From positions 128,001 to 192,000 of the forward strand of contig CAVRJY010000004.1 in assembly GCA_963721805.1 (NCBI GenBank): a DNA stretch of 64,000 nucleotides. Reading direction: 5' to 3'. Within the stretch, counting starts at the first letter, position 1. Each line of letters opens with the position of its first letter. The position numbers and the translations under genes are program-made. This DNA is from Nitrospirota bacterium (GTDB taxonomy: Bacteria > Nitrospirota > Thermodesulfovibrionia > Thermodesulfovibrionales > JdFR-86). Positions 10,456-64,000 of the stretch are shown here, one piece after another. The notes beneath the pieces are model-generated. The model did no database searches and was not told the origin of the DNA. It saw only the letters and a list, made by a program, of their open reading frames with translations.

Positions 10456-11051
10456 GTGAAGCTCCCCGTGGCAAGCCACGGGGCATCCGTGGCGCAGCTA
10501 TAAGTCCAGCTGCGCAGGCAATTGCTTCTCTGCTCTGTGGCCGCGTATGTATTTGCGGATCATTTCCGAGGTCAAGCTGTCCCCGACTGTCCGCGCAAAG
10601 TACCCATCCTCCCACAGCTCACCCTTCCATAGTCTTTGCCTCAGCGATGGGTATTGCTTGAACAGCTCACGGGCGCTGATACTTTTCAGGGTTCTGACCA
10701 CCACCCCTATCGAGTACCGTGGCGGGAACGATAGAAATATATGCACATGGTCCTCCGCCACTTCCATCTCCACTATCTCATATTCATACTCTTCAGCTAT
10801 CTCCCTGAAAAGTTCCGCGCACCGCTCGCGCATGTAACTTTGCGCGAACAGTCTCTTGCGATACTTAGGACACCATACCAGATGGTACCCGGTGTCATAT
10901 ACAGCGTGACTCGTCCTGCGTAACCCCATGCCTCATGATAGCCCGCAATTGCCTCGGCGGGAAAGGGGGACTTCCAGCCCCCCTTACATCCCCCCGGCAG
11001 GGATGCCATTCATCCCCGTGGCAAGCCACGGGGCATACTGGCATGGTTTTC
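10456..11051 (-). mobile_element. IS200/IS605-family IS (tnpA only), copy 1, 596 bp
   Basis: Subterminal hairpins CCCCGTGGCAAGCCACGGGG at both ends. Appears identical to 18421..19016. Both copies lie 3' of TAAC on the minus strand with no target duplication. Confidence 0.93.
10498..10929 (-). CDS. tnpA: IS200 Y1 HUH transposase TnpA
   Basis: YHLVWCPKYR, DHVH (HUH), LWEDGYF and IRKYI (catalytic Tyr). Confidence 0.95.
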   Translation of the reverse strand: MGLRRTSHAVYDTGYHLVWCPKYRKRLFAQSYMRERCAELFREIAEEYEYEIVEMEVAEDHVHIFLSFPPRYSIGVVVRTLKSISARELFKQYPSLRQRLWKGELWEDGYFARTVGDSLTSEMIRKYIRGHRAEKQLPAQLDL

Positions 11052-18420: not shown

Positions 18421-19016
18421 GTGAAGCTCCCCGTGGCAAGCCACGGGGCATCCGTGGCGCAGCTATAAGTCCAGCTGCGCAGGCAATTGCTTCTCTGCTC
18501 TGTGGCCGCGTATGTATTTGCGGATCATTTCCGAGGTCAAGCTGTCCCCGACTGTCCGCGCAAAGTACCCATCCTCCCACAGCTCACCCTTCCATAGTCT
18601 TTGCCTCAGCGATGGGTATTGCTTGAACAGCTCACGGGCGCTGATACTTTTCAGGGTTCTGACCACCACCCCTATCGAGTACCGTGGCGGGAACGATAGA
18701 AATATATGCACATGGTCCTCCGCCACTTCCATCTCCACTATCTCATATTCATACTCTTCAGCTATCTCCCTGAAAAGTTCCGCGCACCGCTCGCGCATGT
18801 AACTTTGCGCGAACAGTCTCTTGCGATACTTAGGACACCATACCAGATGGTACCCGGTGTCATATACAGCGTGACTCGTCCTGCGTAACCCCATGCCTCA
18901 TGATAGCCCGCAATTGCCTCGGCGGGAAAGGGGGACTTCCAGCCCCCCTTACATCCCCCCGGCAGGGATGCCATTCATCCCCGTGGCAAGCCACGGGGCA
19001 TACTGGCATGGTTTTC
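18421..19016 (-). mobile_element. IS200/IS605-family IS, copy 2
   Basis: Same 596-bp sequence and same terminal hairpins as 10456..11051. Confidence 0.93.
18463..18894 (-). CDS. tnpA: IS200 transposase TnpA
   Basis: Protein identical to 10498..10929. Confidence 0.95.
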   Translation of the reverse strand: MGLRRTSHAVYDTGYHLVWCPKYRKRLFAQSYMRERCAELFREIAEEYEYEIVEMEVAEDHVHIFLSFPPRYSIGVVVRTLKSISARELFKQYPSLRQRLWKGELWEDGYFARTVGDSLTSEMIRKYIRGHRAEKQLPAQLDL

Positions 19017-39493: not shown

Positions 39494-39799
39494 TTTGATA
39501 AGAATTGCCGCCATGCGTTCGCATCGGGGCTGGCACAGGCGATTACATTGCTTGCAGTGCTCAGTTTGGTAATATGCATTGGTGGACCTGTATTATTTGT
39601 CTGCGGTCATTAAGCAATTATTGATTGGTCTAATACTCTTACCGCCCTCCCCATGGATATATTCCTCAGGGCGTTTTTTTGCGCTCTAGCGGATTCTATT
39701 CTGTCTATCTATTGCGCTGACGATTACTTGAGAAATCCTAGCGCGCCATGCTTCCCTTCTTTGCGGGAACAAGTTACAATAGAGCATATGGAGGTGTGT

Positions 39800-40102
39800 A
39801 TGGCCGATTCGCTGACTGAAATACGCACAGAGCTCAAGAGACACAAACGGGAAATCATCAGGAAGTACAAGGTGCGGGAGATCGGCATCTTCGGCTCCTT
39901 TGTCCGCGGTGAGCAAAAAACGAGAAGCGATGTCGACGTGCTGGTTGAATTCGATGAGGAGGATATACCGAGCCTCCTTGAGTTCATTGCCTTTGAGCGG
40001 CACCTGGCTGACATCCTCCACAAGAAAGTGGATTTAGTCCGCAAAGAGGCAATCCGCCCTGAGTTACGGGAGGACATCATGCGGGAAGTTGTCTACATTT
40101 GA
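39800..40102 (+). CDS. MNT (minimal nucleotidyltransferase) antitoxin
   Basis: GSFVRGEQ..RSDVDVLVEF (GSx10DxD) and VDLV. GGAGG SD. Confidence 0.92.
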   Translation: MADSLTEIRTELKRHKREIIRKYKVREIGIFGSFVRGEQKTRSDVDVLVEFDEEDIPSLLEFIAFERHLADILHKKVDLVRKEAIRPELREDIMREVVYI

Positions 40103-40437
40103 AGCGGGATTACAAGCTCTTTGTACAGGACATCCTCGATGCCATAAAGCGCATAGAGGAGTTTGTGGGCGAGATGAGCTTTGAGGAATTCATTGCCGAT
40201 GCTAAAACAGCGAGCGCCACAGTCTTACAGGTTCAGATTATCGGAGAAGCTACAAAGAATATTCCCGCAAAACTCAGGAACCGGTATGCCGGCATCCCCT
40301 GGAAAGATATGGCCGCCATGCGGGATAAGGTAACACATTTCTATTTCGGGGTTGACTATAAAATCGTCTGGCGGGTAATTAAAAAGGACTTGCCTGTTAT
40401 CAGGCCTCAGATAGAAAGAATTCTCGCTGAACTATAG
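40099..40437 (+). CDS. HEPN (DUF86/HepT) RNase toxin
   Basis: IIGEA...IPWKDMAAMRDKVTHFYFGVD (Rx4H). Overlaps the MNT stop codon. Confidence 0.92.
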   Translation: MKRDYKLFVQDILDAIKRIEEFVGEMSFEEFIADAKTASATVLQVQIIGEATKNIPAKLRNRYAGIPWKDMAAMRDKVTHFYFGVDYKIVWRVIKKDLPVIRPQIERILAEL

Positions 40438-40475: not shown

Positions 40476-41016
40476 ATTAACTAAAGTTAGCCGTAAGTTA
40501 GTAGAAAACGCACAGGCATCAATTTTTCCTATCAACTTTGGTTTATATATAAACCAAAGTTTGGCGTCCTTTGGTGTATAGTGGTGCGATGAGCATGATA
40601 GGATCATATTTGATGGGCGGGGCAACAAAGGAAGCGGGCCTCAACGCGCGTTCGGAGGCAGGGTCTAAAACCGGGCGACATATCCGAACATCCGAACAGC
40701 GCCGGACTCGGAAAAGCAATGTTTTTCAGATGGTTATCCGCGTATTTGCCTCAAACATCCGAACACTTAAAATAAAACGCACGCGCGCGGAATGCGTAAC
40801 TATACCTAAGCGGGAACATCAGAACATGCCTTTGACCACGTGGGGCGCGGGGGGCGTCCTTCTTCCGTGCCCCCCGAAAGCGCGCCCAAATCGTCTTCAG
40901 ACAAGGGGGCAGTGGCCTCTCCGGGAGAAGACCCGGCACCCCGATGGTGTACTTGGGCGTACATAGAGGGCGAGTCTTTGAAGCCCAACGCAGTATCAAG
41001 CGATTTGGTGCGCTTT
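40476..41016 (+). repeat. Palindromic element copy 9 (core 40826..41016) with long 5' extension
   Basis: Homologous to 19017..19528. Perfect 28-bp palindrome at 40534..40561. Confidence 0.9.
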
Positions 41017-53367: not shown

Positions 53368-54915
53368 ATGCCGAAATCTGATGGAATCGTATACCTGGTC
53401 GGGGCCGGTCCCGGCGACATCGGCCTCCTTACTATAAAAGGACTCCGCTGCCTGAGCCGCGCCGATGTCGTTGTCTACGACTTCCACCTCAACGCCCAGG
53501 TGCTCAACTACATCCGCCACGACGCCGAGTTCATCTACGCCGGCAAGCGCGGCGGCCACCACACGATGACCCAGGACGACATAAACGCCGTGCTCGTCGA
53601 GAAGGCCAAAGAGGGCAAGCGCGTATGCCGCCTCAAGGGCGGCGACCCGTTCGTCTTCGGCCGGGGGGGCGAGGAGGCCGAGGCGCTGGCGGCCGAGGGC
53701 CTCGCGTTCGAGGTCGTCCCCGGCGTGAGCTCGTCGGTCGCGGCCCCGGCGTATGCCGGAATCCCGCTTACGCACCGCCGCCTGAGCTCGTCCTTCGCGG
53801 TCGTGCCGGGCTATGAGGACATGACCCGTAAGGACGTCTCCGCGATAGACTGGTCGAAGCTCGCAACCGGCGTCGGCACGCTCGTATTTCTGATGGCCGT
53901 AAAAAACATAACCGAACTGATGAACAAGCTGATCGAGCACGGCCGCCCGATAGATACGCCAGTGGCGGTCATACGCTGGGGCACGCGCGCCGACCAGCGG
54001 ACGCTCGTAAGCACGCTCGGGCGCATAGCGGCCGAGGTCAAGGAAAACGACATCAGGCCCCCGGCCGTCATGGTCGTAGGCGAGGTCGTGCGGCTCAGAG
54101 AGACGCTCAACTGGTTCGAGAAAAAACCGATGTTCGGCCAGCGCGTGCTCGTAACCCGCGAACACTCAGGCGGCTTCGACCTGCTTGAAGACCTCGGCGC
54201 GGAGGTCATAGAGTTCCCGACCATCCGCATCGCCCCGCCTGAAAGCTGGGCCGAGGTGGACCGGGCCCTTGATAATATTGCCGCGGGCCGGGCCCCCTAC
54301 GGCTGGGCGGTATTCACGAGCGCAAACGGGGTGAAGTATTTCTTTAATCGCATGACCGAGACCGGCGGCGACATCCGCGACCTAAAGGGCGTCAAGCTCT
54401 GCGCGATCGGAGAGAAGACCGCCGAGCGGCTGCGCTCGATGGGGCTGCGCGTCGATATGGTCCCCGAGGAGTTCAACGCCGAGGGGCTCACCGAGGCTTT
54501 CCTTAAACTGACAAAGAACAATAACTTCGAGGGCATGCGCTTCCTGCTGCCGCGCGCCGAGGAGGCCCGCGAGAAATTCCCCGATGCGGTGCGCAAGCTC
54601 GGCGGACATATAGACACGGTCACGGCATACCGGGCCGCGCTCCCTGAGCGCCACCCCAGACGGCTTAAGCGCTTCCTCAAAGAGGGCCGCATCTCGATAG
54701 CCACGTTTACGAGCGCCGCGACGTTCAGGAACTTCATCACCCTGATGGATGAGGGGCTCGAGCCCCTAAAAGACGTAACCATCGCAGCGATCGGGCCGGT
54801 GACGAAGCGCGCGATAGAGCGCGAAGGTCTAAAGGTCACGATCATGCCGGAGAAGGCCACTGTCGATGCCATGGTCGAGGCGATCCGCGTCTGGGCCACA
54901 TCCCCCAAAAAATAA
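53368..54915 (+). CDS. cobA: Fused uroporphyrinogen-III C-methyltransferase / synthase
   Basis: YLVGAGPGD, RLKGGDPFVFGRGGEE, then a HemD domain (FTSANGV, AIG.KT, FTS). Confidence 0.95.
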   Translation: MPKSDGIVYLVGAGPGDIGLLTIKGLRCLSRADVVVYDFHLNAQVLNYIRHDAEFIYAGKRGGHHTMTQDDINAVLVEKAKEGKRVCRLKGGDPFVFGRGGEEAEALAAEGLAFEVVPGVSSSVAAPAYAGIPLTHRRLSSSFAVVPGYEDMTRKDVSAIDWSKLATGVGTLVFLMAVKNITELMNKLIEHGRPIDTPVAVIRWGTRADQRTLVSTLGRIAAEVKENDIRPPAVMVVGEVVRLRETLNWFEKKPMFGQRVLVTREHSGGFDLLEDLGAEVIEFPTIRIAPPESWAEVDRALDNIAAGRAPYGWAVFTSANGVKYFFNRMTETGGDIRDLKGVKLCAIGEKTAERLRSMGLRVDMVPEEFNAEGLTEAFLKLTKNNNFEGMRFLLPRAEEAREKFPDAVRKLGGHIDTVTAYRAALPERHPRRLKRFLKEGRISIATFTSAATFRNFITLMDEGLEPLKDVTIAAIGPVTKRAIEREGLKVTIMPEKATVDAMVEAIRVWATSPKK

Positions 54916-54994
54916 CGCTTCACACCAAACCGTTTCCATACTATACTTTGCTATGGAAGGCCCCCTTTGTCCGTCCGGGATCAGGAGGCAACAC

Positions 54995-55258
54995 ATGGCA
55001 AGGCTCGATGTGGAAAAGTACAGGGAGATGTACCTCAAGGAAGTAGAGAAGCGCATAATGTCCCGCAAGGACAAGGTCCCGCACTTCTCACCACAGCTCC
55101 TCTCGGACGCGATCCGCGAGGAGATGAACCGGGCAAACCCCGACACCTGGGAGGTCGACGTCCCCGACGACAGGGAAAAGGCCATCGCCGAGGCCGAAAA
55201 GAGGATCCTCAGCATCATGGCGGTCAACAAGGACGTCGGCCTAGGCAAGTCCTTTTAG
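54995..55258 (+). CDS. Hypothetical protein
   Basis: AGGAGG SD before MARLDVEKY. Host-like codon pattern. Confidence 0.6.
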   Translation: MARLDVEKYREMYLKEVEKRIMSRKDKVPHFSPQLLSDAIREEMNRANPDTWEVDVPDDREKAIAEAEKRILSIMAVNKDVGLGKSF

Positions 55259-55472
55259 GGACCACCCAACACTCACTGACGGCGGCTCGGCCGTCACCAC
55301 CAGAACGGACGGACATCGGGGGCGCTTATTTATCCCGTGGCCTCGGCCACGCGTTCATCACGGGGCGCAGGATGGCGGGCGGATTAAATGCCGCTGCCAA
55401 TCCGGGCTCAGCGGGAATTTGTAGCGCTTTATATTGCAAAGCCCCGGCGCGAGCCGCTATAATCCGGGACGT

Positions 55473-55718
55473 ATGGTCCGCATAACCTTCTACAGCAAGG
55501 ACGGCTGCTGGCTCTGCGACGCGGCAAGAGAGATGCTCAACGGGCTTAAGGAGCGCCATGACATCAGGCTCACGGACGTCGACATCGCCTCCACGGAGGA
55601 GCTCTACGAACTCTACCGCTTCGACGTCCCGGTGCTGGAGTTCAAAGACGGCTCGACCCTCCACGGCCATATCAGGAAATCCCATCTCATGAGGAAGCTC
55701 GATGAACATAAGGAATGA
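55473..55718 (+). CDS. Glutaredoxin-like (DUF836) protein
   Basis: FYSKDGCWLCD...VDI...DVPVL. Confidence 0.85.
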   Translation: MVRITFYSKDGCWLCDAAREMLNGLKERHDIRLTDVDIASTEELYELYRFDVPVLEFKDGSTLHGHIRKSHLMRKLDEHKE

Positions 55719-55992
55719 GGACGTACGCTCGATCACGGTCGAGATACCGGAGGGCCACCACCACCTGCGCAGCACCCTGCTGCTCAATGACGGCACGGAG
55801 CTGACATTGCAGGAGGCCACGGTTGCGAACCTCGTGCGCGCGTTTCTGGGCGTCAAGACCCATCCCACGCGGCGGCGTATGGCGCTCTCGGGCCGCGAGG
55901 TCGCCGAGGGCCTAAAACACGGCTTCGCCCAGTGGCAGCTGCTGGAGCCCGAAGAAGGAGGCGGCTTACATGCCAATACCAAGGCTGTTTAA
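55702..55992 (+). CDS. Hypothetical protein
   Basis: Overlaps both neighbours. EIPEGHHHLR...QEATVANLVRAF..VKTHP. Confidence 0.7.
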   Translation: MNIRNEDVRSITVEIPEGHHHLRSTLLLNDGTELTLQEATVANLVRAFLGVKTHPTRRRMALSGREVAEGLKHGFAQWQLLEPEEGGGLHANTKAV

Positions 55993-56329
55993 CTTGCGGA
56001 CGCTCTCTATAGAGGCCGGCGGCGAGTACGTCCTCGGCCTCAGGGACCTCGACACGCACGCCTGCTACATGATCTACGGCACTGTCCTGCCTGGCGCGGC
56101 GCCGCGCCTCATCAAGCCAGGCGACGGGCACGAGGAGATCATCCTCTGCGTAAGCGGGGAGTTTACGGTCACCGGCCACTTCAGCGGAACGCTCAAGGAA
56201 GGCGAGGCCTTCCACATCAGGGAAGAGGCCGAGTGCTATCTCTCGAACCCGACCACCAACCCCGCGGTATATGTCGCCGCGGGCGGCCACTCAGAGACGG
56301 GCCACCACGGCCACAGCCACGCACACTGA
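55970..56329 (+). CDS. Cupin-fold protein with His-rich tail
   Basis: GHEEII...G...L.EG beta-rich pattern and C-terminal GHHGHSHAH. Confidence 0.65.
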   Translation: MPIPRLFNLRTLSIEAGGEYVLGLRDLDTHACYMIYGTVLPGAAPRLIKPGDGHEEIILCVSGEFTVTGHFSGTLKEGEAFHIREEAECYLSNPTTNPAVYVAAGGHSETGHHGHSHAH

Positions 56330-56449
56330 GGGGCCGAATGGCCCCTATCCGCGCAGCTATCGCTCCGCTCACACGAACAGCGGTTGCGCTATCTGTGGCG
56401 CGTATGATTTATCCCGCATGACAGGCCGATTAACAGGATCGAGACATCC

Positions 56450-56947
56450 ATGACCGAAGAGCCCCCGGATAATGTGCTGCCCATCAGGGAAGCCTCTGCC
56501 GGCGACATCCCCGAACTGGCGAGGCACCACAGGGAGATGTTCGAGGAGGTATGGGAGGCGATGGGCAAGTCGGTCGAGAGCTCGCAGGCAGGTACGCTCG
56601 AAGAGGCTTACGCACGAAAGCTGCGCGCACAGCTCAATGGCGCGTGCAAGGCCTGGGTGATCGAGGCCGGGGGCAGAGCAATCGCAAGCGGCGCGATCTC
56701 GATCGTAAGCTACGTCCCCACCCCGCTTGACCCGCACAGTGACGTCGCGTACCTGCACAGCATGTTCACCGAGAAGCGCTACAGGGGCAGGCGCTGCGCG
56801 AGCAGGATAATCCAGGAGGCGTTAAATTATTGCAGGGCCAGAGGGATCAAGAGGGTCATGCTCTTTGCGAGCGAAGCGGGGAGGCCTCTATATGAGCAGA
56901 TAGGGTTCAGCCCGGTCCCGAACATGATGCGGCTGATACTTGAGTGA
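56450..56947 (+). CDS. GNAT acetyltransferase
   Basis: MFTEKRYRGRRCA...LFASEAGRPLYEQIGF. Confidence 0.88.
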   Translation: MTEEPPDNVLPIREASAGDIPELARHHREMFEEVWEAMGKSVESSQAGTLEEAYARKLRAQLNGACKAWVIEAGGRAIASGAISIVSYVPTPLDPHSDVAYLHSMFTEKRYRGRRCASRIIQEALNYCRARGIKRVMLFASEAGRPLYEQIGFSPVPNMMRLILE

Positions 56948-56964
56948 CTTTCTGATACCTGCCG

Positions 56965-58086
56965 CTAAGGCATCGTGATCGAGCCGAGCACAACGCGCTC
57001 GCGCGCCCCGGTGGCGGCCGGTACGTTGGAGGGCCGCCCAGAGAGGGTCTCGTTGGCGAGCACCGCAAAGCAGAGGGCTTCGCGCGCGGCCGAGGGTATG
57101 CCGTAGCGTTCGGTCGTCCCTATGACAACCGCGCCCATCGCATCCTGTATCAGCCCCATCAGATAGGCGTTCTCGGTGCCGCCACCCGCAAAGACTATCT
57201 CGGCGGGCCGCGTCACCGGGAAAACGAACCTCTCGTAGGCCTCGGCGATGCTCCGGGCGGTGAAGTGCGCGAGCGTGCAAAGCAGGTCCTCGGGCCTGAG
57301 CCTGCGCCCGCCGAGCATCGCATCGACCGCGCCCAGGTTGAACGTCTCGCGGCCAGTGGACTTCGGGGGGTGCGTCTTCAGGTACGGCATCGACATGAGC
57401 TTACGAAGCAGGGCCTCGTCCGGCCTGCCGCGCCGCGCAACAGCGCCGTTTCTATCGCATGGTTTCTTCAGGTATGCCGCTGAGGCCTCGTCCATCAGGC
57501 AGTTGCCAGCGCCGGTGTCAAACGCGATCATGTCTTCCAACTTCGGCGTGACCAGCGTGAGGTTCGATATCCCGCCTATGTTGTGCACGGCTATGGCGCG
57601 CTGGCCCCCGCCGAATATCACCCAGTCCGCAAAGGGCACGAGCGGCGCGCCCTGCCCCCCGGCCGCGATGTCCGCGCTGCGGAAGTTCGATACCACAGGC
57701 CGCAGGGTCCGCCTCGCGATCACCGCGGGCTCGCCTATCTGGAGCGTGGAGCCGGCCCTGCCCCGGGCGCGCGGGACATGGCATATGGTCTGGCCGTGCG
57801 ATGCGATGGCCGCGATATCGCGCATCGGCACCCTGGCCTCCGACGCGCACCTGATCGCGGCCTGGGCGAACGCCTCGCCCATGGCGAAGTTCAGCTCGCA
57901 TATCTGGCGCGTACTGCCGTCGAACGCGGCGGCGATCGAGCGCCTCAGCGCCGCAGGGTGGGGCATGTGGGCGTGGTGAAAGAGGCGGGGTGCACCGCCG
58001 TCACTGCCGAACCCGGCAATGACGGCGTCCGTACCGTCGTGCGACGTCCCTGACATGAGGCCGAGAATCAGCCTCGGCCCGGTCAC
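56965..58086 (-). CDS. anmK: Anhydro-N-acetylmuramic acid kinase
   Basis: GLMSGTSHDG, SHGQT, GGQGAPLVP, NIGGISN and PKSTGRE. Confidence 0.95.
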   Translation of the reverse strand: MTGPRLILGLMSGTSHDGTDAVIAGFGSDGGAPRLFHHAHMPHPAALRRSIAAAFDGSTRQICELNFAMGEAFAQAAIRCASEARVPMRDIAAIASHGQTICHVPRARGRAGSTLQIGEPAVIARRTLRPVVSNFRSADIAAGGQGAPLVPFADWVIFGGGQRAIAVHNIGGISNLTLVTPKLEDMIAFDTGAGNCLMDEASAAYLKKPCDRNGAVARRGRPDEALLRKLMSMPYLKTHPPKSTGRETFNLGAVDAMLGGRRLRPEDLLCTLAHFTARSIAEAYERFVFPVTRPAEIVFAGGGTENAYLMGLIQDAMGAVVIGTTERYGIPSAAREALCFAVLANETLSGRPSNVPAATGARERVVLGSITMP

Positions 58087-58766
58087 GAGATAAGTTCTTT
58101 GTTTACGGTGATCTTAAGCCCGCTCTTGAGCCCGTTGACATATGACTTGAGCGCGGCCTGGCGCTTCATGTCCAGCAGTTCCGTCAGGATCGTCTCCCTG
58201 AGCTTGGGGTCGGTGGCCGAGGCGGCCAGCGTGTCCTGCTCGTAGGGGCTCAGCTCGACCGAGTCCTCGACCGCGCGCCTGATCTTCTCCGCCAGCAGCT
58301 CGTTGCGCCGCGACTCCTCGAACCTCGCCGGGGTCAGGTGGTTGAGCTCCAGCGTGCGCAGGTAGACCTCTTTGTTGAAGGCGCCGTTGCGCACGAACGA
58401 CGGGTCTGAGGTGATCGCCTCCTGGAGCTCGTCGTCAGAGACCGTGAAGCCCTCGGCGCGGGCCGCGACGAGCAGGACGCGGTTGTCTATTATGCTGTCG
58501 AGGACCTGGGTCTTGAGTTCGTCGCGCATCTTCTGGTCGAACTTCTCCTTGTACGTCTCGCGGTAGACCTCGGTCATGCGGTCATAGGTGCGCCAGTAGT
58601 CCTCGACCGGCACCTTCTCGGCGCCGACCTCGGCGAGGTACTGCACCTGCTTCTTTCCGCCGTTTTGGCGGTCAACGCTGCCCACGCCCCAGAAGATGAA
58701 CGAAAGGATAACGACGATGAACAGAACGTAAAAATACCTGGCGTGTTTCCGCATTCCCTGAAGCAT
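58083..58766 (-). CDS. SurA N-terminal domain (PpiD-like) protein
   Basis: MLQGMRK + TM (SFIFWGVG), then VSDDEL...F...G.F..E.Y. Confidence 0.82.
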   Translation of the reverse strand: MLQGMRKHARYFYVLFIVVILSFIFWGVGSVDRQNGGKKQVQYLAEVGAEKVPVEDYWRTYDRMTEVYRETYKEKFDQKMRDELKTQVLDSIIDNRVLLVAARAEGFTVSDDELQEAITSDPSFVRNGAFNKEVYLRTLELNHLTPARFEESRRNELLAEKIRRAVEDSVELSPYEQDTLAASATDPKLRETILTELLDMKRQAALKSYVNGLKSGLKITVNKELIS

Positions 58767-58771
58767 ATGTC

Positions 58772-59167
58772 CTAATACCTCCCTGAAAAGTAGTCTTCGA
58801 GTATCCTCGCGTGGTCAAACGCGATATCCCCGGGCAGCGCGCCGCGCTGAAAAACCCCGGCATCCGCGGCATCGTCGCCGGCCCGGAGTTCGCCCGAACC
58901 CTCGGCCACGAACACGACCGATACGGTGTGTCCCCTCGGGTCACGCGCCGGATCGGAATACGCGTGCATCTGGCGGATGAGCCTGATCCGCAGTCCGGTC
59001 TCCTCGCGGGCCTCGCGCACCGCCGCATCCTCGAGCGTCTCGCCGGTCTCGACGAACCCGCCGGGGATCGCCCATCCGGGCGGAGGATACCTGCGCTTGA
59101 CCAGCACGATCCCGCCCCCGAACTCGATGATAGCGTCGACGGTGAGCCGTGGCCCCCTCGGTTCCAT
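58772..59167 (-). CDS. NUDIX hydrolase
   Basis: [24 protein letters not shown]udix box. Confidence 0.93.
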
Positions 59168-59225
59168 TGATTAATATTTTACAGCAATCGCATTGCAAAA
59201 GGGAACTTCTGAAAGCGCGCCATAA

Positions 59226-59909
59226 CTACAGCAACCCGCGTTCCCTGAAACTGTAGTGCCCCGCACTGCCGATAATGAGGTGGTCCAGCACGCGCAGGCT
59301 CATGCCCCTGGCCAGGCGCGCGAGTTCGGCGGTGAGCGCCTTGTCGTGCTCGGAGGGCTTGGCCGCGCCGCCCGGATGGTTATGGACGAAGATCACCCCG
59401 GTGGCGTTGTTGGCGAGCGCCCGCTCGATGATCTTGCGCGGGTATACCGCCGACTCGTCCACCGTGCCCTCGTGCACGACCTCGTCGGCGATGACCTCGT
59501 TGGCCGAGTTCAGGAACACGACCCTGAACTGCTCGTCGCGCAGGCCGGACATCTTAAGCGTGCAGTACTCGATCAGGGCCCCGGTGGAGGATACGGCCTT
59601 CCCCGCCCTGGCCGTGTCGCGCAGGTAGAGGGCTCCGCACTCCTTCACCGCCTTGATGAGCACGGCCGCGTTGCTGCCGATGCCCTTCACCGCGGTGAGC
59701 TCGTCCACGCTTGCGTCGATGACACCCCTGAAGCCGCCGAAGCGCTTCAGCAGGTCCTTCGCGAGGGGCTTTACGTCGCGCCTTGGGATGGCGTACATGA
59801 GCAGGAGCTCGATGGCCTCGTAGTCGTGCATGGCCTCCGCTCCGGCGCGGAGGAACCGGGCCCTGAGGCGTTGCCTGTGGCCGGCGTAATGGGGCTGCTG
59901 GTCGTCCAT
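59226..59909 (-). CDS. radC: RadC/JAB domain protein
   Basis: GHRQRLR, HhH motif, HNHPGG...PS..D and LDHLII. Confidence 0.93.
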   Translation of the reverse strand: MDDQQPHYAGHRQRLRARFLRAGAEAMHDYEAIELLLMYAIPRRDVKPLAKDLLKRFGGFRGVIDASVDELTAVKGIGSNAAVLIKAVKECGALYLRDTARAGKAVSSTGALIEYCTLKMSGLRDEQFRVVFLNSANEVIADEVVHEGTVDESAVYPRKIIERALANNATGVIFVHNHPGGAAKPSEHDKALTAELARLARGMSLRVLDHLIIGSAGHYSFRERGLL

Positions 59910-59936
59910 ACGCAGGGATTATAACACCGGGGGCGG

Positions 59937-61190
59937 TTAGGAGTCGGCTGGTATCTGCAGTCTCTGCCCCGGCTTGAGGCGCGTGGAGCGGTTAATGTCG
60001 TTGGCGTCGATGATGTCCTGCGTGTCGATGCCGTTTCGGCGCGCTATGCTCCAGAGGTTGTCGCCCTTCTTCACGACGTACCGCTTCGAGCCCGCGGCGC
60101 GCTTCGCGCCTGCCTGCTGCCTCGACGCGACGGCCTTTCTCTTGCGCGTGTGCCTGGCCGAGGCGTATTCGTCCTTGCCGGGGGCCGAGGCATGGTCCGG
60201 CATGTTTGCGATGAACGCCGCACGCGTGCCGACCGGGAGCTTCAGCACGTAATCGTCACCCGGCGGGGTGCGCTGCTTCTTGAGTTCGGGGTTCAGTTCC
60301 TTGATGGCCTCCGGCTCGACCCCAGCGGCCTGCCCGATGTCCGCAAGCGAGAGCTGATAGGGGATGTGCACTTCCTCGTACTGGAGGCCGTCCTCGTACT
60401 GGAGGTCCTCAAACCCGTAGGCCTCCGGGTCGTCCGCGATCAGCTTGGCCGCGATAAAGCGCGGGACGTACTCCTTGGTCTCGTTCTTGATCTGGCGCGT
60501 AGAGGCTATCGCCCAGAAGTCGTTGGAGTTCGTGTGGTCTATGGCGCGCGCGATCTTCATCTCCCCGGCGTTATAGGCCGCCATCGCAAGCTCCCACGAG
60601 TTGAACATCCCGTAGAGGTCCTTCATGTAGTGCGCCGCGGCGTGCGTGGACTTCACCGGGTCTCTGCGTTCGTCGACCCACTTGTCGATGCGCAGGCCGT
60701 AGCGCTTGCCGGTCTCGGGGATGAACTGCCAGGGCCCGGCCGCCTTCTTGGGCGAGAGCGCCTTGGTAGAGAAGCCGCTCTCGATCATCGACATGAAGAC
60801 GATGTCCGAGGGGATGCCCTCTTTTTTGAGGATGTCGGTCATGACCGTGATGTAGCGGCCCGAGCGCTGCAGGTAGAGCGCGAAGCGCTTCTTGATCGCC
60901 TCGGAAAACAGCTCGATGTTGCGCCTCACGGCAATCACGGCCATCGGGTTTTGCCGGAATTCGCTCATGCTCCGAAGGCCGATGTAGCCGGGTATGTCCA
61001 CGACGTCGCTCATCGGGTAGTTGTCGTCCGTCAGGCAGAGGCCGGGGTCGTGCGGCTCGCGCCCCAGCAGTATCGACGCCGAGGGGCTGGCCTGCACCCC
61101 GAACAGCTCGGCCGCGTTATTGGCGCTGGCAAGAGTCGCGGTGCCCAGAAGCAACACCCCGAGCGTCAGGGAAACCAGAACTTTTTGCAT
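59937..61190 (-). CDS. mltD: MltD-like lytic transglycosylase with LysM
   Basis: Signal peptide from 61190, IESGF, AGPWQF, AAYNAG and a C-terminal LysM. Confidence 0.88.
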   Translation of the reverse strand: MQKVLVSLTLGVLLLGTATLASANNAAELFGVQASPSASILLGREPHDPGLCLTDDNYPMSDVVDIPGYIGLRSMSEFRQNPMAVIAVRRNIELFSEAIKKRFALYLQRSGRYITVMTDILKKEGIPSDIVFMSMIESGFSTKALSPKKAAGPWQFIPETGKRYGLRIDKWVDERRDPVKSTHAAAHYMKDLYGMFNSWELAMAAYNAGEMKIARAIDHTNSNDFWAIASTRQIKNETKEYVPRFIAAKLIADDPEAYGFEDLQYEDGLQYEEVHIPYQLSLADIGQAAGVEPEAIKELNPELKKQRTPPGDDYVLKLPVGTRAAFIANMPDHASAPGKDEYASARHTRKRKAVASRQQAGAKRAAGSKRYVVKKGDNLWSIARRNGIDTQDIIDANDINRSTRLKPGQRLQIPADS

Positions 61191-61265
61191 GGTAAGATAA
61201 TCGCCCATTCGCCCCAAAAAGTCAAGGGGGCGAGGGATACTTTTACCTATATCGGCGTCTCTTCC

Positions 61266-61942
61266 AAAGCGCTCCAAATCGCTTGATACTGCGTTGGGCT
61301 TCAAAGACTCGCCCTCTATGTACGTCACATCAGTCCGCTTGGTCAAGCGTCCGGGGCCTTTTTCAAAGCGCTCCAAATCGTTTGATACTGCGTTGGGCTT
61401 CAAAGACTCGCCCTCTATGTACGCCCAAGTACACCATCGGGCGGTCTTCTCGCCCTGCCTTGTCTGAAGACGATTTGGGCGCGCTTTCGGGGGGCACGGA
61501 CAAAGGCCGCCCCCCGCGCCCCACAAGGTCAACGGCATGATTTGAGGCATGTTCTGATGCTCGCGCTTAGGTATAGTTACGCATTCCGCGCGCGTGCGCG
61601 CGCGTTTTTGCGTCTTTTGTTCGGATGTTGGGCAAGAATATGGCGATAATATCTTGAAAACACTCATTTGTTTGTCAGCCCTCTGTTCGGATGTTCGGAT
61701 AAAAGACGCGTTTTCTGGCCCATCATCCGAACACGCGGCGCTTGTCGAACACGCAGAACACTTCGGCTCCGCGCTGAGTGCTTGATGGCCTCTTGTCTTC
61801 CCTTTCAAATACATACCTAACTTACTCATCGCACCACTATACACCAAAGAAGGCCAAACTTTGGTTTATATATAAACCGAAGATAATAGGAAAAATTTAG
61901 GTTCGTGCGTTTTCTATTAACTTACGATTAACTATGGTTAAT
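61266..61942 (-). repeat. Palindromic element copy 12 (half copy + full copy 61365..61538) with long extension
   Basis: 1.5-copy core like 44688..44961. The extension is homologous to 40476..40825. Confidence 0.9.
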
Positions 61943-62226
61943 AAGCGCTCACCTACATCAGACACACGACACCGTCAAATTCAATGCACTGAACTTTGGA
62001 CACGCACGGACGCGGTTTGTTAATTTGGCTTCTAGCCTGGGTTTTCTCGCAACGAGTTGATTACATATAGAAAATAACCATTCTGTTATATTCAATCATT
62101 ACTGTATTTTCTGCCTTTTCATACCGCTTCTGCTACAATTTTGCTCCAGTCAGAAAGCCTCTAATATATAATTGCAAAGATTAATATTTTGGTGCTTCTG
62201 ATATAATTATTGCGGTAATAACTATC

Positions 62227-64000
62227 ATGACCACTCAGCCTGATTTACTCGCTAAGATAGTAACACCGCAACTGAAAAAACAGTTACGAGAGATTTGCGC
62301 GTTCGCTGAGAAGTTCTGGGAAAAGCCTTTTCTTTACTGGTTTACTAATCATGACGTAGAACATTCTAAGGAAATTATCCGGCGCATAGAACAAATAATC
62401 GTCCCGCTTGAGGGTACTGATAAGGCACTTAATGAGCACGAGACTTTCATACTCCTAGCCTCGGCTTATCTGCATGATATTGGCATGCAATATCTAAAAT
62501 ATGAGGGCAAATCTCCGGAAAACTTCACAGCTCAAGATTATAATGCAATACGGAAACTGCACGCTCAGTCAAGCTATGAACTTATCCGCAAGGGTATTAC
62601 AGCAAAGCTAGATAGAGACGATGTACACTTCCCGGATTTAAGCAAGCAATATATCCCCATTATTGCCCTAGTCTCGAAAGGCCACTCTGGCGACTTCTTT
62701 GAGGAGGTAGTAAATCACTTTGAAAAAACCCCCTATTCTCCAGACAACTGCGAAGTCAGAGGGGGACTTCTCACTGCGCTTCTACTCATAGCCGACGAGC
62801 TTGACCTTCATGCACGGCGCGCAAACTTCGATAATCTGAAGAACTATACCCCTTCCAGCTATACGTTTTCACACTGGTACAGACACCATTACGTGGAGCA
62901 CGTCGCTGTCGTTGAATCGTCTGTAAAGTTATTATTTGAGTTTCCGGACAATGCTGGTGATTACGCATCGCTGGTTATTTCTGCTATAGAGACGAAGATA
63001 GAGCAACAGATTTCATTCGTAGAGGATACGATCCGAAAAGCTACCGGAAGGATTCTGCTTAATCGCAAAGTTGAGATCAATCAGCGAGTAAATCCTGAAA
63101 CACATCGTCGTTCTATGCCAGAGGGTGTGCAGGCTGAGTTTCGCAAATTGCTTGACGATAAAGCAGTGCAAGCTAAATCTGCCTCCGGCTCTCCACCCAC
63201 TATAGCATCGTCTTCCTATACAATAGTTCCTCCCGAAAAACCTGTTAGTATATTTACCGGACGCAAGGAAGACTTGGAGCGGTTCAAATCTGCGCTTGCT
63301 GCCTCACCCATTATCTCCATAGAAGGTATCGGCGGCATTGGTAAAACCCAGTTCGCAGCTAAATGTATTGCAGATTTGTTCAATACGGAAAAGGTGGTTT
63401 GGTTTAAATGCACTACGGATACGCAGCTTGACTCACTAATCGAGGCATCAGGTTTTCCAGATGTCCTAAAGGGTGAGAATAAGACAGAGCTTGCAAGGTA
63501 TGCTGGGTTTCTGTCACTAATTGAGAAGCACGAAAAAATCATTTTTGTTGATGACTTTCAAGAAGTCACTGACAAATCGTTTGCCGAGTTTATCAGATTT
63601 GCACATGCGCGACTTGAAAAGGCCAAGATTGTTCTTATAGATCGAGAGCACCCGAATATCTCGGGTGTACACATTGCTCCTGTTCAGCTTGAGGGGCTTG
63701 GAAGCGCGGCATTAGAGTACGCGAAGAATTTCTGTAGCACATACTATCAAGGCATAACGATCGATAATGATACATTGCAAGGGCTTTGTGACAAGGCTGA
63801 CGGACACCCGCTCTCAATAGGGTTTGCAATTCAGCTGCTCAGTTACGGTGCGTTATCTGATGACATTATTGTGGCCATGATGGGAACTAAGCAGGGAGAC
63901 GAGTTGAGTAAGCGTCTACTTGCTATGGTATTCGATCATCCTCTAAGTACTGAGGCGGAGCGCGCATTCATGCTAACAATGTCGGTCTTGCGTGGATCGT
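62227..64000 (+). CDS. HD-phosphohydrolase (HD-CE-like) fused to a STAND/NB-ARC NTPase, partial
   Basis: Not in the ORF track (no stop inside the window). My translation gives FTNHDVEHS, AYLHDIG, LIADELDL, then FTGR..DL, GIGGIGKT (Walker A, 63325-63348), IIFVDD (Walker B) and GHPL. Confidence 0.85.
   Translation, partial: MTTQPDLLAKIVTPQLKKQLREICAFAEKFWEKPFLYWFTNHDVEHSKEIIRRIEQIIVPLEGTDKALNEHETFILLASAYLHDIGMQYLKYEGKSPENFTAQDYNAIRKLHAQSSYELIRKGITAKLDRDDVHFPDLSKQYIPIIALVSKGHSGDFFEEVVNHFEKTPYSPDNCEVRGGLLTALLLIADELDLHARRANFDNLKNYTPSSYTFSHWYRHHYVEHVAVVESSVKLLFEFPDNAGDYASLVISAIETKIEQQISFVEDTIRKATGRILLNRKVEINQRVNPETHRRSMPEGVQAEFRKLLDDKAVQAKSASGSPPTIASSSYTIVPPEKPVSIFTGRKEDLERFKSALAASPIISIEGIGGIGKTQFAAKCIADLFNTEKVVWFKCTTDTQLDSLIEASGFPDVLKGENKTELARYAGFLSLIEKHEKIIFVDDFQEVTDKSFAEFIRFAHARLEKAKIVLIDREHPNISGVHIAPVQLEGLGSAALEYAKNFCSTYYQGITIDNDTLQGLCDKADGHPLSIGFAIQLLSYGALSDDIIVAMMGTKQGDELSKRLLAMVFDHPLSTEAERAFMLTMSVLRGS

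Follow-up and report, generated by a model that had tools for sequence, protein, structure and literature searches.

An HD-CE head on a STAND-TPR-SEC-C chassis: a candidate NLR-like immune sensor encoded in a repeat-bounded slot of a Nitrospirota genome

Sensors of the NLR-like STAND type have come to be regarded as a main arm of bacterial immunity, and the few heads studied in them are nucleases, proteases, SIR2 and TIR domains. In this work, we describe a gene of a Nitrospirota bacterium (order Thermodesulfovibrionales, lineage JdFR-86; assembly GCA_963721805.1) that begins near the end of a stretch of 64,000 nucleotides (nt), called here the window (positions 128001-192000 of contig CAVRJY010000004.1, hereafter C4), and is completed in an overlapping, extended stretch (L002; C4:188001-207000). 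Its product, referred to as the HD-STAND protein, consists of an HD-CE head, a disordered linker, an NB-ARC-like STAND module, tetratricopeptide repeats (TPRs) and a SEC-C tail, in this order, and judging by its sequence and by those of its relatives it is very probably an Avs-like single-gene immune or conflict STAND. The type of sensor in which effector, STAND and repeats are joined is already known, and Pfam already sets HD-CE apart as a family; what is new is HD-CE as an unstudied, well-conserved head, and the conserved SEC-C tail. The finding extends current ideas on bacterial immunity and overturns none.

The antiviral STAND NTPases known as Avs or AVAST comprise Avs1-5 and, in the passages covered of Lee et al. 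2026 (PMC13581612), have been expanded to at least 90 families; the same passages count 589 clades, 198 of them defence-associated. Like the HD-STAND protein, Avs proteins combine in one polypeptide an enzymatic effector at the N-terminus, a STAND NTPase in the middle and a TPR-like sensor at the C-terminus; effector swapping, horizontal spread and large size are further common traits, and the tripartite layout of Avs in the broad sense is present here. The HD-STAND protein differs by its HD-CE head and by a regular TPR_12 array ending in SEC-C. A preliminary description, drawn from the window alone, had named an end-to-end match to a known Avs/NLR type as a ground for its refutation; none of the Avs models of PADLOC v2.0 aligned over most of the length, the best being Avs1b (E = 0.005, 12.1 bits, residues 438-547), and the protein lies outside Avs1-5 as modelled there. 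The main text of Lee et al. 2026 (PMC13581612) does not contain "HD domain", "phosphohydrolase" or "SEC-C", and the part of its supplements that was searched holds no HD or SEC-C terms and no match to the accessions of six relatives; the clade may well be catalogued in the remaining supplements. Calcineurin-like phosphoesterases and GT4 appear among the effectors of bacterial NACHT proteins in the passages covered of Kibby et al. 2022, and these passages, together with those of Kaur 2020 and Kaur 2021, list many STAND effectors and no HD head for bacterial STANDs. In the open-access literature searched, we found no paper on an HD-headed STAND, no biological paper using the name HD-CE, and, among the papers listed, none linking the SEC-C motif with defence.

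Two signalling STANDs complete the comparison. The closest solved relative of the NTPase-TPR part is PH0952 (PDB 6MFV), a TPR-bearing STAND ATPase from Pyrococcus horikoshii; it has 641-653 residues, aligns with the STAND-TPR part only, not with the HD head or the SEC-C tail, and its title makes it an ATPase of signal transduction and no immune protein. MalT-type STAND activators have the NOD and a TPR-like sensor in common with the HD-STAND protein (fold match to 8bob, TM score 0.71 on the target), and the NCBIfam MalT model aligns with residues 431-911 at E = 1.8e-12 and 46.1 bits, far below its cut-off of 537. The DNA-binding output domain of MalT was not found, and no DNA-binding family stood among the best 25 of the 35 Pfam families matched by the whole protein.

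Within the window, the frame (62227..63999, plus strand) starts with ATG and continues for 591 codons, free of stops up to the window end, in agreement with the AT-rich open reading frame (ORF) of about 590 codons, open to the edge, that had been noticed earlier. It is listed only if frames running off the end of the sequence are allowed, which is probably why the ORF track overlooked it. Extension of the contig brought the frame to a stop codon at L002:5677-5679, so that the gene is complete, encodes 1,150 amino acids (aa) and is not truncated beyond the window. The guanine-plus-cytosine (GC) content is 0.39-0.46 over 62000-63999, against 0.59-0.69 over 54000-61499; the whole low-GC stretch covers L002 1501-6000 (0.37-0.47, with surroundings of 0.56-0.70), and the gene, at 0.37-0.47 in a genome of about 0.6, is foreign in base composition. 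All seven motifs quoted in the preliminary description were found at fixed residues of the translation, far beyond chance. The gene, its parts within the window and the motifs, all on the plus strand, are as follows.

62227..64000, continuing to L002:5679 (65679 by extrapolation), plus strand: HD-CE-STAND-TPR-SEC-C gene, with 591 of its 1,150 codons in the window
62227..63174, plus strand: HD-CE effector domain, residues 1-316 (Pfam match 39-230), defined by Pfam, the AlphaFold2 (AF2) model and conservation
63175..63261, plus strand: disordered linker, residues 317-345 (predicted local distance difference test score, pLDDT, below 50 at 312-334)
63262..63999, plus strand: STAND nucleotide-binding domain and start of the helical arm, residues 346-591, defined by the 6mfv match, conservation and the model
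Residues 40-46, plus strand: motif TNHD..H of the HD head
Residues 82-86, plus strand: motif LHDIG of the HD head
Residues 189-193, plus strand: motif ADELD of the HD head
Residues 343-346, plus strand: motif FTGR, located in the translation
63325-63348, plus strand: motif GIGGIGKT (Walker A) of the STAND NTPase, residues 367-374
63538-63555, plus strand: IIFVDD, residues 438-443, with the motif IFVDD (Walker B) of the STAND NTPase at residues 439-443
63802-63813, plus strand: motif GHPL of the STAND helical arm, residues 526-529

The head is a member of Pfam HD-CE (PF24391), matched at E = 4e-31 in the whole protein (109.1 bits against a cut-off of 27, residues 39-230) and at E = 1.5e-31 in the window part only (110.5 bits), with all invariant residues of the family kept. 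H46, H83, D84, H112, H153, D190 and R198 are invariant in 55 HD-CE sequences, and H42, E191 and H216 nearly so. In 30 full-length relatives of the HD-STAND protein, H42, H83, D84, D190 and E191 are kept in 29, H46 in 28, and H112 and H153 in all. The proposed metal ligands are H46, H83, D84, H112, H153 and D190, and the intact HD metal site claimed earlier is borne out by their presence and by their conservation in 28-30 of the 30 relatives. PF24391 is a family without a solved structure detectable by sequence: the single sequence gave only a chance row in the PDB (E = 0.21), and a profile of 55 HD-CE sequences gave no PDB match at E ≤ 1. A search of the ESM Atlas returned only HD-CE clusters. 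The AF2 model of residues 1-330 has a pLDDT of 93.1 and a predicted template modelling (pTM) score of 0.91, and in the model of the whole protein (pLDDT 86.2, built on 30 relatives) the head forms a helical domain with a small sheet over residues 1-316. In a second fold search with the head model, independent of Foldseek, the 50 matches listed are mostly HD-superfamily enzymes, with scores in a range that is, by the warning of the tool itself, common for helical folds. The matches include the following.

C-terminal domain of PPX/GppA: Z 12.6-10.1, the best match (exopolyphosphatase) at 12.6
Class I (cyclic-nucleotide) phosphodiesterases: Z about 10
YhaM: Z 9.5
HD-GYP: Z 8.8
Rel and small alarmone hydrolases: Z 8.1-8.8 (Rel 8.8)
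PgpH: Z 8.4
SAMHD1: Z 7.5

On these models, the fold of the head appears to belong to the HD superfamily, without a close solved relative. PADLOC gave a weak match to a CARF-HD model (E = 7e-4), and a complex prediction with two copies of residues 1-320 scored 0.00, which weighs neither for nor against.

Behind the linker, the whole-protein model contains an alternating strand-helix nucleotide-binding domain (346 to about 510), followed at 514-640 by a helical arm (helices 514-570) and a small helix-strand unit; its helix-strand-strand-helix part at 576-637 may be read, from the secondary structure of the model, as a winged helix. Walker A (GxxGxGK[ST]) and Walker B (hhhhDD) are both present, and K373, D442 and P528 are kept in all 30 full-length relatives. 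Curated STAND profiles stayed below threshold (NB-ARC 14.4 bits against 23.5, nSTAND6 17.2 against 27.7, and also AAA_14); the sibling protein P0145 reaches NB-ARC at 36.6 bits. Residues 331-680 match PH0952 (6mfv) by sequence at E = 2.5e-13, and the NB-ARC-type module proposed earlier to follow the HD head is upheld by this match and by the motifs kept in 30 of 30 relatives, the NB-ARC profile itself being sub-threshold. No NACHT family was among the eight Pfam families matched at E ≤ 1 by residues 1-591, the weak matches being to NB-ARC, nSTAND and AAA families, and the NTPase does not seem to be of the bacterial NACHT (bNACHT) type.

The C-terminal sensor that had been expected as TPR or WD40 repeats was found as a TPR array. 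TPR signals extend over about 680-1060 (Pfam TPR_12 E = 2.8e-51, TPR_10, and TPR_MalT E = 5.7e-13), in about ten very regular 40-residue units, five tandem 120-nt units being 64-74% identical in DNA, and the model shows about twenty paired helices over 642-1065 and then a poorly defined tail. In this tail, SEC-C (PF02810) matches residues 1130-1146 (E = 1.3e-8, 35 bits against a cut-off of 20.4) with the cysteines C1134, C1136, C1145 and C1146, which are kept in 27-28 of the 30 full-length relatives, and a CxC..C[CH] tail is present in 28 of them. SEC-C also terminates some CBASS E2 and PDC-S12 models of PADLOC. This zinc motif, the PH0952/MalT-type STAND likeness and the repeat-bounded slot considered below are all absent from the preliminary description.

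The likeness to PH0952 and MalT invites a different explanation, namely that the protein has no part in immunity and belongs to the signalling STANDs of the MalT/PH0952 type, passing a cellular cue sensed by the TPRs to a housekeeping HD phosphodiesterase, for instance one for second-messenger turnover. We consider this improbable. Foldseek with the whole model returned 6mfv first (E = 2.4e-15, 738 columns), then plain TPR proteins, and then MalT (8bob), so that the closest solved structures are of the signalling kind; the NCBIfam MalT alignment, even far below its cut-off, points the same way, and distant matches of the protein search include similar STAND-TPR modules joined to adenylate cyclase (PF00211). 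The absence of a DNA-binding output domain from the Pfam matches given above counts against this explanation. Further evidence against it comes from the relatives.

A word-indexed protein search yielded 94 proteins with E-values up to 1e-3. Leaving aside the query itself, the top 42 (P0003-P0044; E ≤ 7.5e-134, 29-45% identical) have the same architecture, and PF24391 is listed for 40 of them; in the databases, such relatives bear no other names than "tetratricopeptide repeat protein" or "HD domain-containing protein". When the 591 residues encoded in the window were compared exhaustively by phmmer with 1.84 billion representative proteins, 1,622 matches reached E ≤ 1e-3, of which 120 reached E ≤ 1e-30. 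The matches form three groups: whole-length, head only and NTPase only. The heads of 18 NTPase-only proteins were TIR_2 (five), SIR2_2 (four), the calcineurin-like phosphoesterase Metallophos (five) and GT4-conflict (two), with none recognised in two, and seven of the 18 end in SEC-C (E ≤ 1e-7). Their NTPases are 30-49% identical to that of the HD-STAND protein, and the five that exceed 40% overlap the HD-headed family itself (43-52% over residues 335-680). A second search added two proteins with a TIR head and one with a Metallophos head. Among the uncharacterised metagenomic siblings, P0137, P0128, P0145 and P0108 share an NTPase that is 37-43% identical, the same type of TPR and often the SEC-C tail, and differ in carrying another N-terminal head (TIR, SIR2, Metallophos or GT4-conflict); they are named only "TPR repeat protein". 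PADLOC recognised the swapped heads as a ThsA-like SIR2 (E = 1.9e-20), a ThsB-like TIR (E = 6.2e-59), PDC-S60 (E = 2.7e-61) and a CBASS effector model labelled endonuclease (E = 9.2e-31), and no Avs model matched the STAND chassis of five siblings at E ≤ 1e-3.

The exchange works in the other direction too. In 21 head-only HD-CE proteins, the partners were FGE-sulfatase, HAD hydrolase, ABC-type ATPase (AAA_15/AAA_21), EAD7, WD40, TPR and other P-loop modules, and HD-CE relatives also include proteins named NACHT-domain proteins. Three matches (P0076, P0078 and P0083) combine PF24391 with HATPase_c_3 (PF13589), as foreseen by the earlier remark that HD-CE domains often occur with HSP90-like ATPases. 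Such two-way modularity of heads and chassis is the standard signature of conflict systems, and the exchange of heads on a STAND-TPR-SEC-C chassis is the effector swapping typical of NLR-like immunity. The role in conflict systems that had been suggested for the STAND module thus gains from its recurrence with TIR, SIR2, Metallophos and GT4-conflict heads. The swapping of TIR, SIR2 and GT4-conflict heads at the same NTPase identity, and the fusion of HD-CE to EAD7 and FGE-sulfatase, also speak against a housekeeping signalling protein. With at least five different heads on one chassis (NB-ARC-like NTPase, TPR_12 array and SEC-C), the natural TIR and SIR2 versions are ready controls.

Under the immune reading, which is supported by domain order, conserved motifs, effector swapping, patchiness, foreign composition and a defence-rich type of slot, the protein could work as follows. 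The TPR array and the SEC-C knuckle would keep it closed until a trigger, most likely a phage protein, binds and opens it. The opened NB-ARC-like module would exchange its nucleotide and oligomerise, thereby clustering the HD-CE heads through the flexible linker of about 30 residues, and the clustered heads would become an active metal-dependent (two-metal) phosphodiesterase. The substrate of this enzyme would most likely be nucleic acid and, with lower probability, free nucleotides or a nucleotide signal; its action would abort the infection at the cost of the cell. The trigger, oligomerisation, substrate and abortive infection are what we infer from the architecture. Provided that the protein is an immune or conflict STAND, nucleic acid is a tentative choice of target, which we hold a little short of evenly. 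The statement as a whole, a horizontally acquired NLR-like (Avs-type) single-gene immune sensor whose HD-CE head degrades nucleic acid and aborts infection, strikes us as evenly balanced between true and false.

Six ligands in the order H..HD..H..H..D are the pattern of two-metal HD phosphodiesterases and nucleases, not of one-metal triphosphohydrolases; triphosphohydrolases of the SAMHD1/dGTPase type have a four-ligand H..HD..D site. SAMHD1 and bacterial dGTPase defence act by depleting deoxynucleoside triphosphates (dNTPs), and a possible, if unlikely, alternative keeps the same immune chassis and lets HD-CE hydrolyse free nucleotides, either by depletion of dNTPs or NTPs or by destruction of a nucleotide signal (a cyclic or linear oligonucleotide, or an alarmone), as the preliminary description had proposed. 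The fold matches to GppA/PPX, class I phosphodiesterases, HD-GYP, PgpH, Rel and small alarmone hydrolases and SAMHD1 are in keeping with it, as are the weak CARF-HD match and the sister heads TIR and SIR2, which act on the small nucleotide NAD+. It is opposed by the six ligands that HD-CE keeps against the four of the SAMHD1/dGTPase type, by the failure of the sequence, profile included, to match any solved HD enzyme, and by the fusion of HD-CE to ABC-type ATPases, the usual partners of which are nucleases.

The SEC-C tail of SecA binds the ribosome. A doubtful further step beyond the immune reading would be that HD-CE brings a new immune effector chemistry under NLR-type oligomerisation, and that SEC-C takes part in sensing, either as a latch or by tethering the protein to some host machine, the ribosome for example. 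If this were true, what the chassis watches over would be a process of the host, not a structural protein of a phage that it binds, and a repeat-bounded slot system collecting defence genes would deliver the HD-STAND gene as cargo.

The HD-STAND gene is rare and patchy. Only two of 40 close relatives of the same order carry it, at 41% and 46% identity, and 300 other genomes sampled from the phylum gave no match at E ≤ 1e-20. The own genome holds one copy and one distant STAND relative (C4:241506-242453, 23% identical, E = 2e-9). With one genome scanned per species, 190 relatives came to light, of which 80 were kept; the full-length ones among these come from Planctomycetota (including Brocadiaceae), Pseudomonadota, metagenome-assembled genomes (MAGs) of delta-proteobacteria (Smithella), Nitrospinota and Armatimonadetes, and weaker matches, many of them head-only, from several MAGs of methanogens and other archaea. 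No HD-STAND match was obtained by tblastn in plasmid and phage collections. Extreme patchiness together with foreign composition is a further argument against a housekeeping signalling role. When 69 neighbouring ORFs from 11 homologue loci were compared with PADLOC, convincing defence neighbours appeared at four loci (L011, L007, L014 and L008), as listed here with the other seven.

Homologue locus L011: complete JetABCD directly downstream
Homologue locus L007: mad3-like ATPase, TIR protein and PDC-M51A
Homologue locus L014: type II/IIG methylase
Homologue locus L008: PDC-S09 and PDC-S03
Homologue locus L006: DpdF/RecQ-like helicase, which may be housekeeping
Homologue loci L010 and L013: weak or irrelevant matches only
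Homologue loci L015, L024, L012 and L005: no match

In its own genome, the gene lies in a slot bounded by copies of an abundant structured repeat (SRE) and by a non-coding element, module X.

61253..61324, plus strand: partial SRE of 72 nt, 93% identical to 61352-61423 and matching the SRE query
61352..61540 (L002 1352-1540), plus strand: full SRE, the left slot boundary, with 102 genome matches of at least 150 nt
61541..61945 (L002 1541 to about 1945), plus strand: non-coding module X, which carries ATCCGAACA motifs and separates the SRE from the HD-STAND gene
L002:7572-7753 (C4:195572-195753), minus strand: inverted SRE partner outside the window, 80% identical over 184 nt

The ATCCGAACA motif is present in four exact copies, at L002 1618, 1684, 1692 and 1725 (to 1733), with 0.12 expected. 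Module X has 52 further matches in the genome, full-length copies being 68-76% identical, and the genome contains 34 cargo-side ends, so that the HD-STAND gene fills one of 34 slots. In the first kilobase (kb) past the module-X end, GC is at most 0.53 in 22 of the 34, against 0.58-0.62 for the contigs. To sample the cargo, 43 ORFs of at least 100 aa from 23 of the 32 other loci (L100-L131), picked for GC of at most about 0.55 (two at 0.58), were scanned with Pfam and PADLOC. Genes of conflict systems were found at 10 of the 23 loci, the remaining ones holding a sulfotransferase, a histidine kinase with a radical-SAM protein, GNAT, an SRAP protein or unknowns. The conflict-related cargo of the 10 loci is listed below, followed by the details of a slot that lies within the window.

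Slot cargo: NgoMIV-type restriction enzyme and Vsr
Slot cargo: MmeI-type IIG enzyme (PADLOC E = 0)
Slot cargo: Gp49/HigB-like protein
Slot cargo: HNH protein
Slot cargo: HepT, or HepT with MNT, at three loci
Slot cargo: KAP NTPase (PDC-S20/PifA/QatA)
Slot cargo: Cthe_2314-type HEPN protein
Slot cargo: SIR2-like protein
Window 39653-40434, with module X at 40476-40831: HepT (HEPN) toxin and MNT nucleotidyltransferase in another module-X slot (PADLOC PDC-S09, E = 4.6e-29)

The HD-STAND gene is a concrete example of defence genes gathering in the repeat-bounded slots of this genome, and the wealth of restriction and toxin-antitoxin genes in slots of this type is hard to square with housekeeping signalling. 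The same setting lends itself to another explanation, which we rate as highly improbable: the gene might be cargo serving the mobile slot itself, as an addiction or exclusion module, or a decaying relic without present function. Its place inside an SRE/module-X slot, the toxin-antitoxin pairs in other slots and a broken flavin-reductase-like frame just downstream would fit, and against them stand a frame that is intact over 1,150 codons with all motifs kept, and relatives in other phyla without sign of dependence on the repeats (their loci were not searched for repeats).

Several observations weigh against the immune reading with its nucleic-acid-degrading head. Foldseek with the HD-CE model found nothing at E ≤ 1e-3, and as the head has no close solved relative and its Z-scores fall in the range common for helical folds, its substrate is not readable from structure; the step from six ligands to two metals rests on general knowledge of HD enzymes. 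The closest solved structures are the signalling STANDs PH0952 and MalT, with no Avs among the fold matches listed. Seven of the 11 homologue loci are without a convincing defence neighbour, which would suit a signalling STAND, and the flanks outside the slot read, by eye, as housekeeping genes. Finally, picking low-GC ORFs favours foreign genes of any kind, and the link between slot and defence is therefore an association, not an enrichment.

The remainder of the slot and its surroundings contain further frames.

L002:5816-6266, minus strand: two overlapping frames of 83 and 97 aa, flavin-reductase-like halves (by eye), directly downstream of the HD-STAND gene and probably a frameshifted remnant
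L002:6449-6637, plus strand: ferredoxin-like ORF of 62 aa (cysteine pattern by eye)
L002:6647-7096, plus strand: hemerythrin-domain ORF (Pfam E = 5.9e-9)

The ferredoxin-like and hemerythrin ORFs, with GC of about 0.58, may be older cargo or native genes. On the left side, a minus-strand frame of 636 aa (window 59937-61847) has an upstream third that crosses SRE copies and module X, hence a repeated peptide; it is probably over-extended, with its true start near 61190, where a signal-peptide-like sequence is seen by eye. Orthologues of LptD, one of the flank genes, were found in five family relatives (31-33% identical), where the other flank genes are absent within about 12 kb, and the synteny of this region is too eroded for an empty-site comparison to show insertion. 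Two pairs of flanking inverted repeats, I3 and I6, were judged to be due to chance, since one arm of each lies inside the coding region. Rfam gave no match at E ≤ 0.1 over L002 1000-7000, and a scan for promoters and terminators gave counts near those of shuffled sequences and no usefully placed site at the ends of the HD-STAND gene. Among sequencing runs, none of RNA was listed as containing the gene, and one DNA run contained a small part of its sequence words.

Among the homologue loci, L007 and L009, from Planctomycetota and Brocadiaceae MAGs, have in common a run of downstream minus-strand ORFs of 285, 205, 492 and about 245 aa. The scan covered the run of L007, in which it showed the ORF of 205 aa to be TIR-like and that of 492 aa to be PDC-M51A-like; the shared run may be a conserved companion set or reflect mere kinship of the genomes.

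An IS200-like Y1 transposase of 143 aa (Pfam Y1_Tnp, E = 6.7e-42) occurs in the genome in six copies, identical in protein and contained in an identical unit of 601 bp.

Window 10501-10929 (C4:138501-138929): IS200-like Y1 transposase
Window 18466-18894 (C4:146466-146894): IS200-like Y1 transposase
Contig C1: four more copies

All six copies are found at most about 1.3 kb away from an SRE, and three adjoin module-X ends, which makes the transposase a candidate enzyme for the SRE/module-X slots, or else an insertion sequence that merely favours them.

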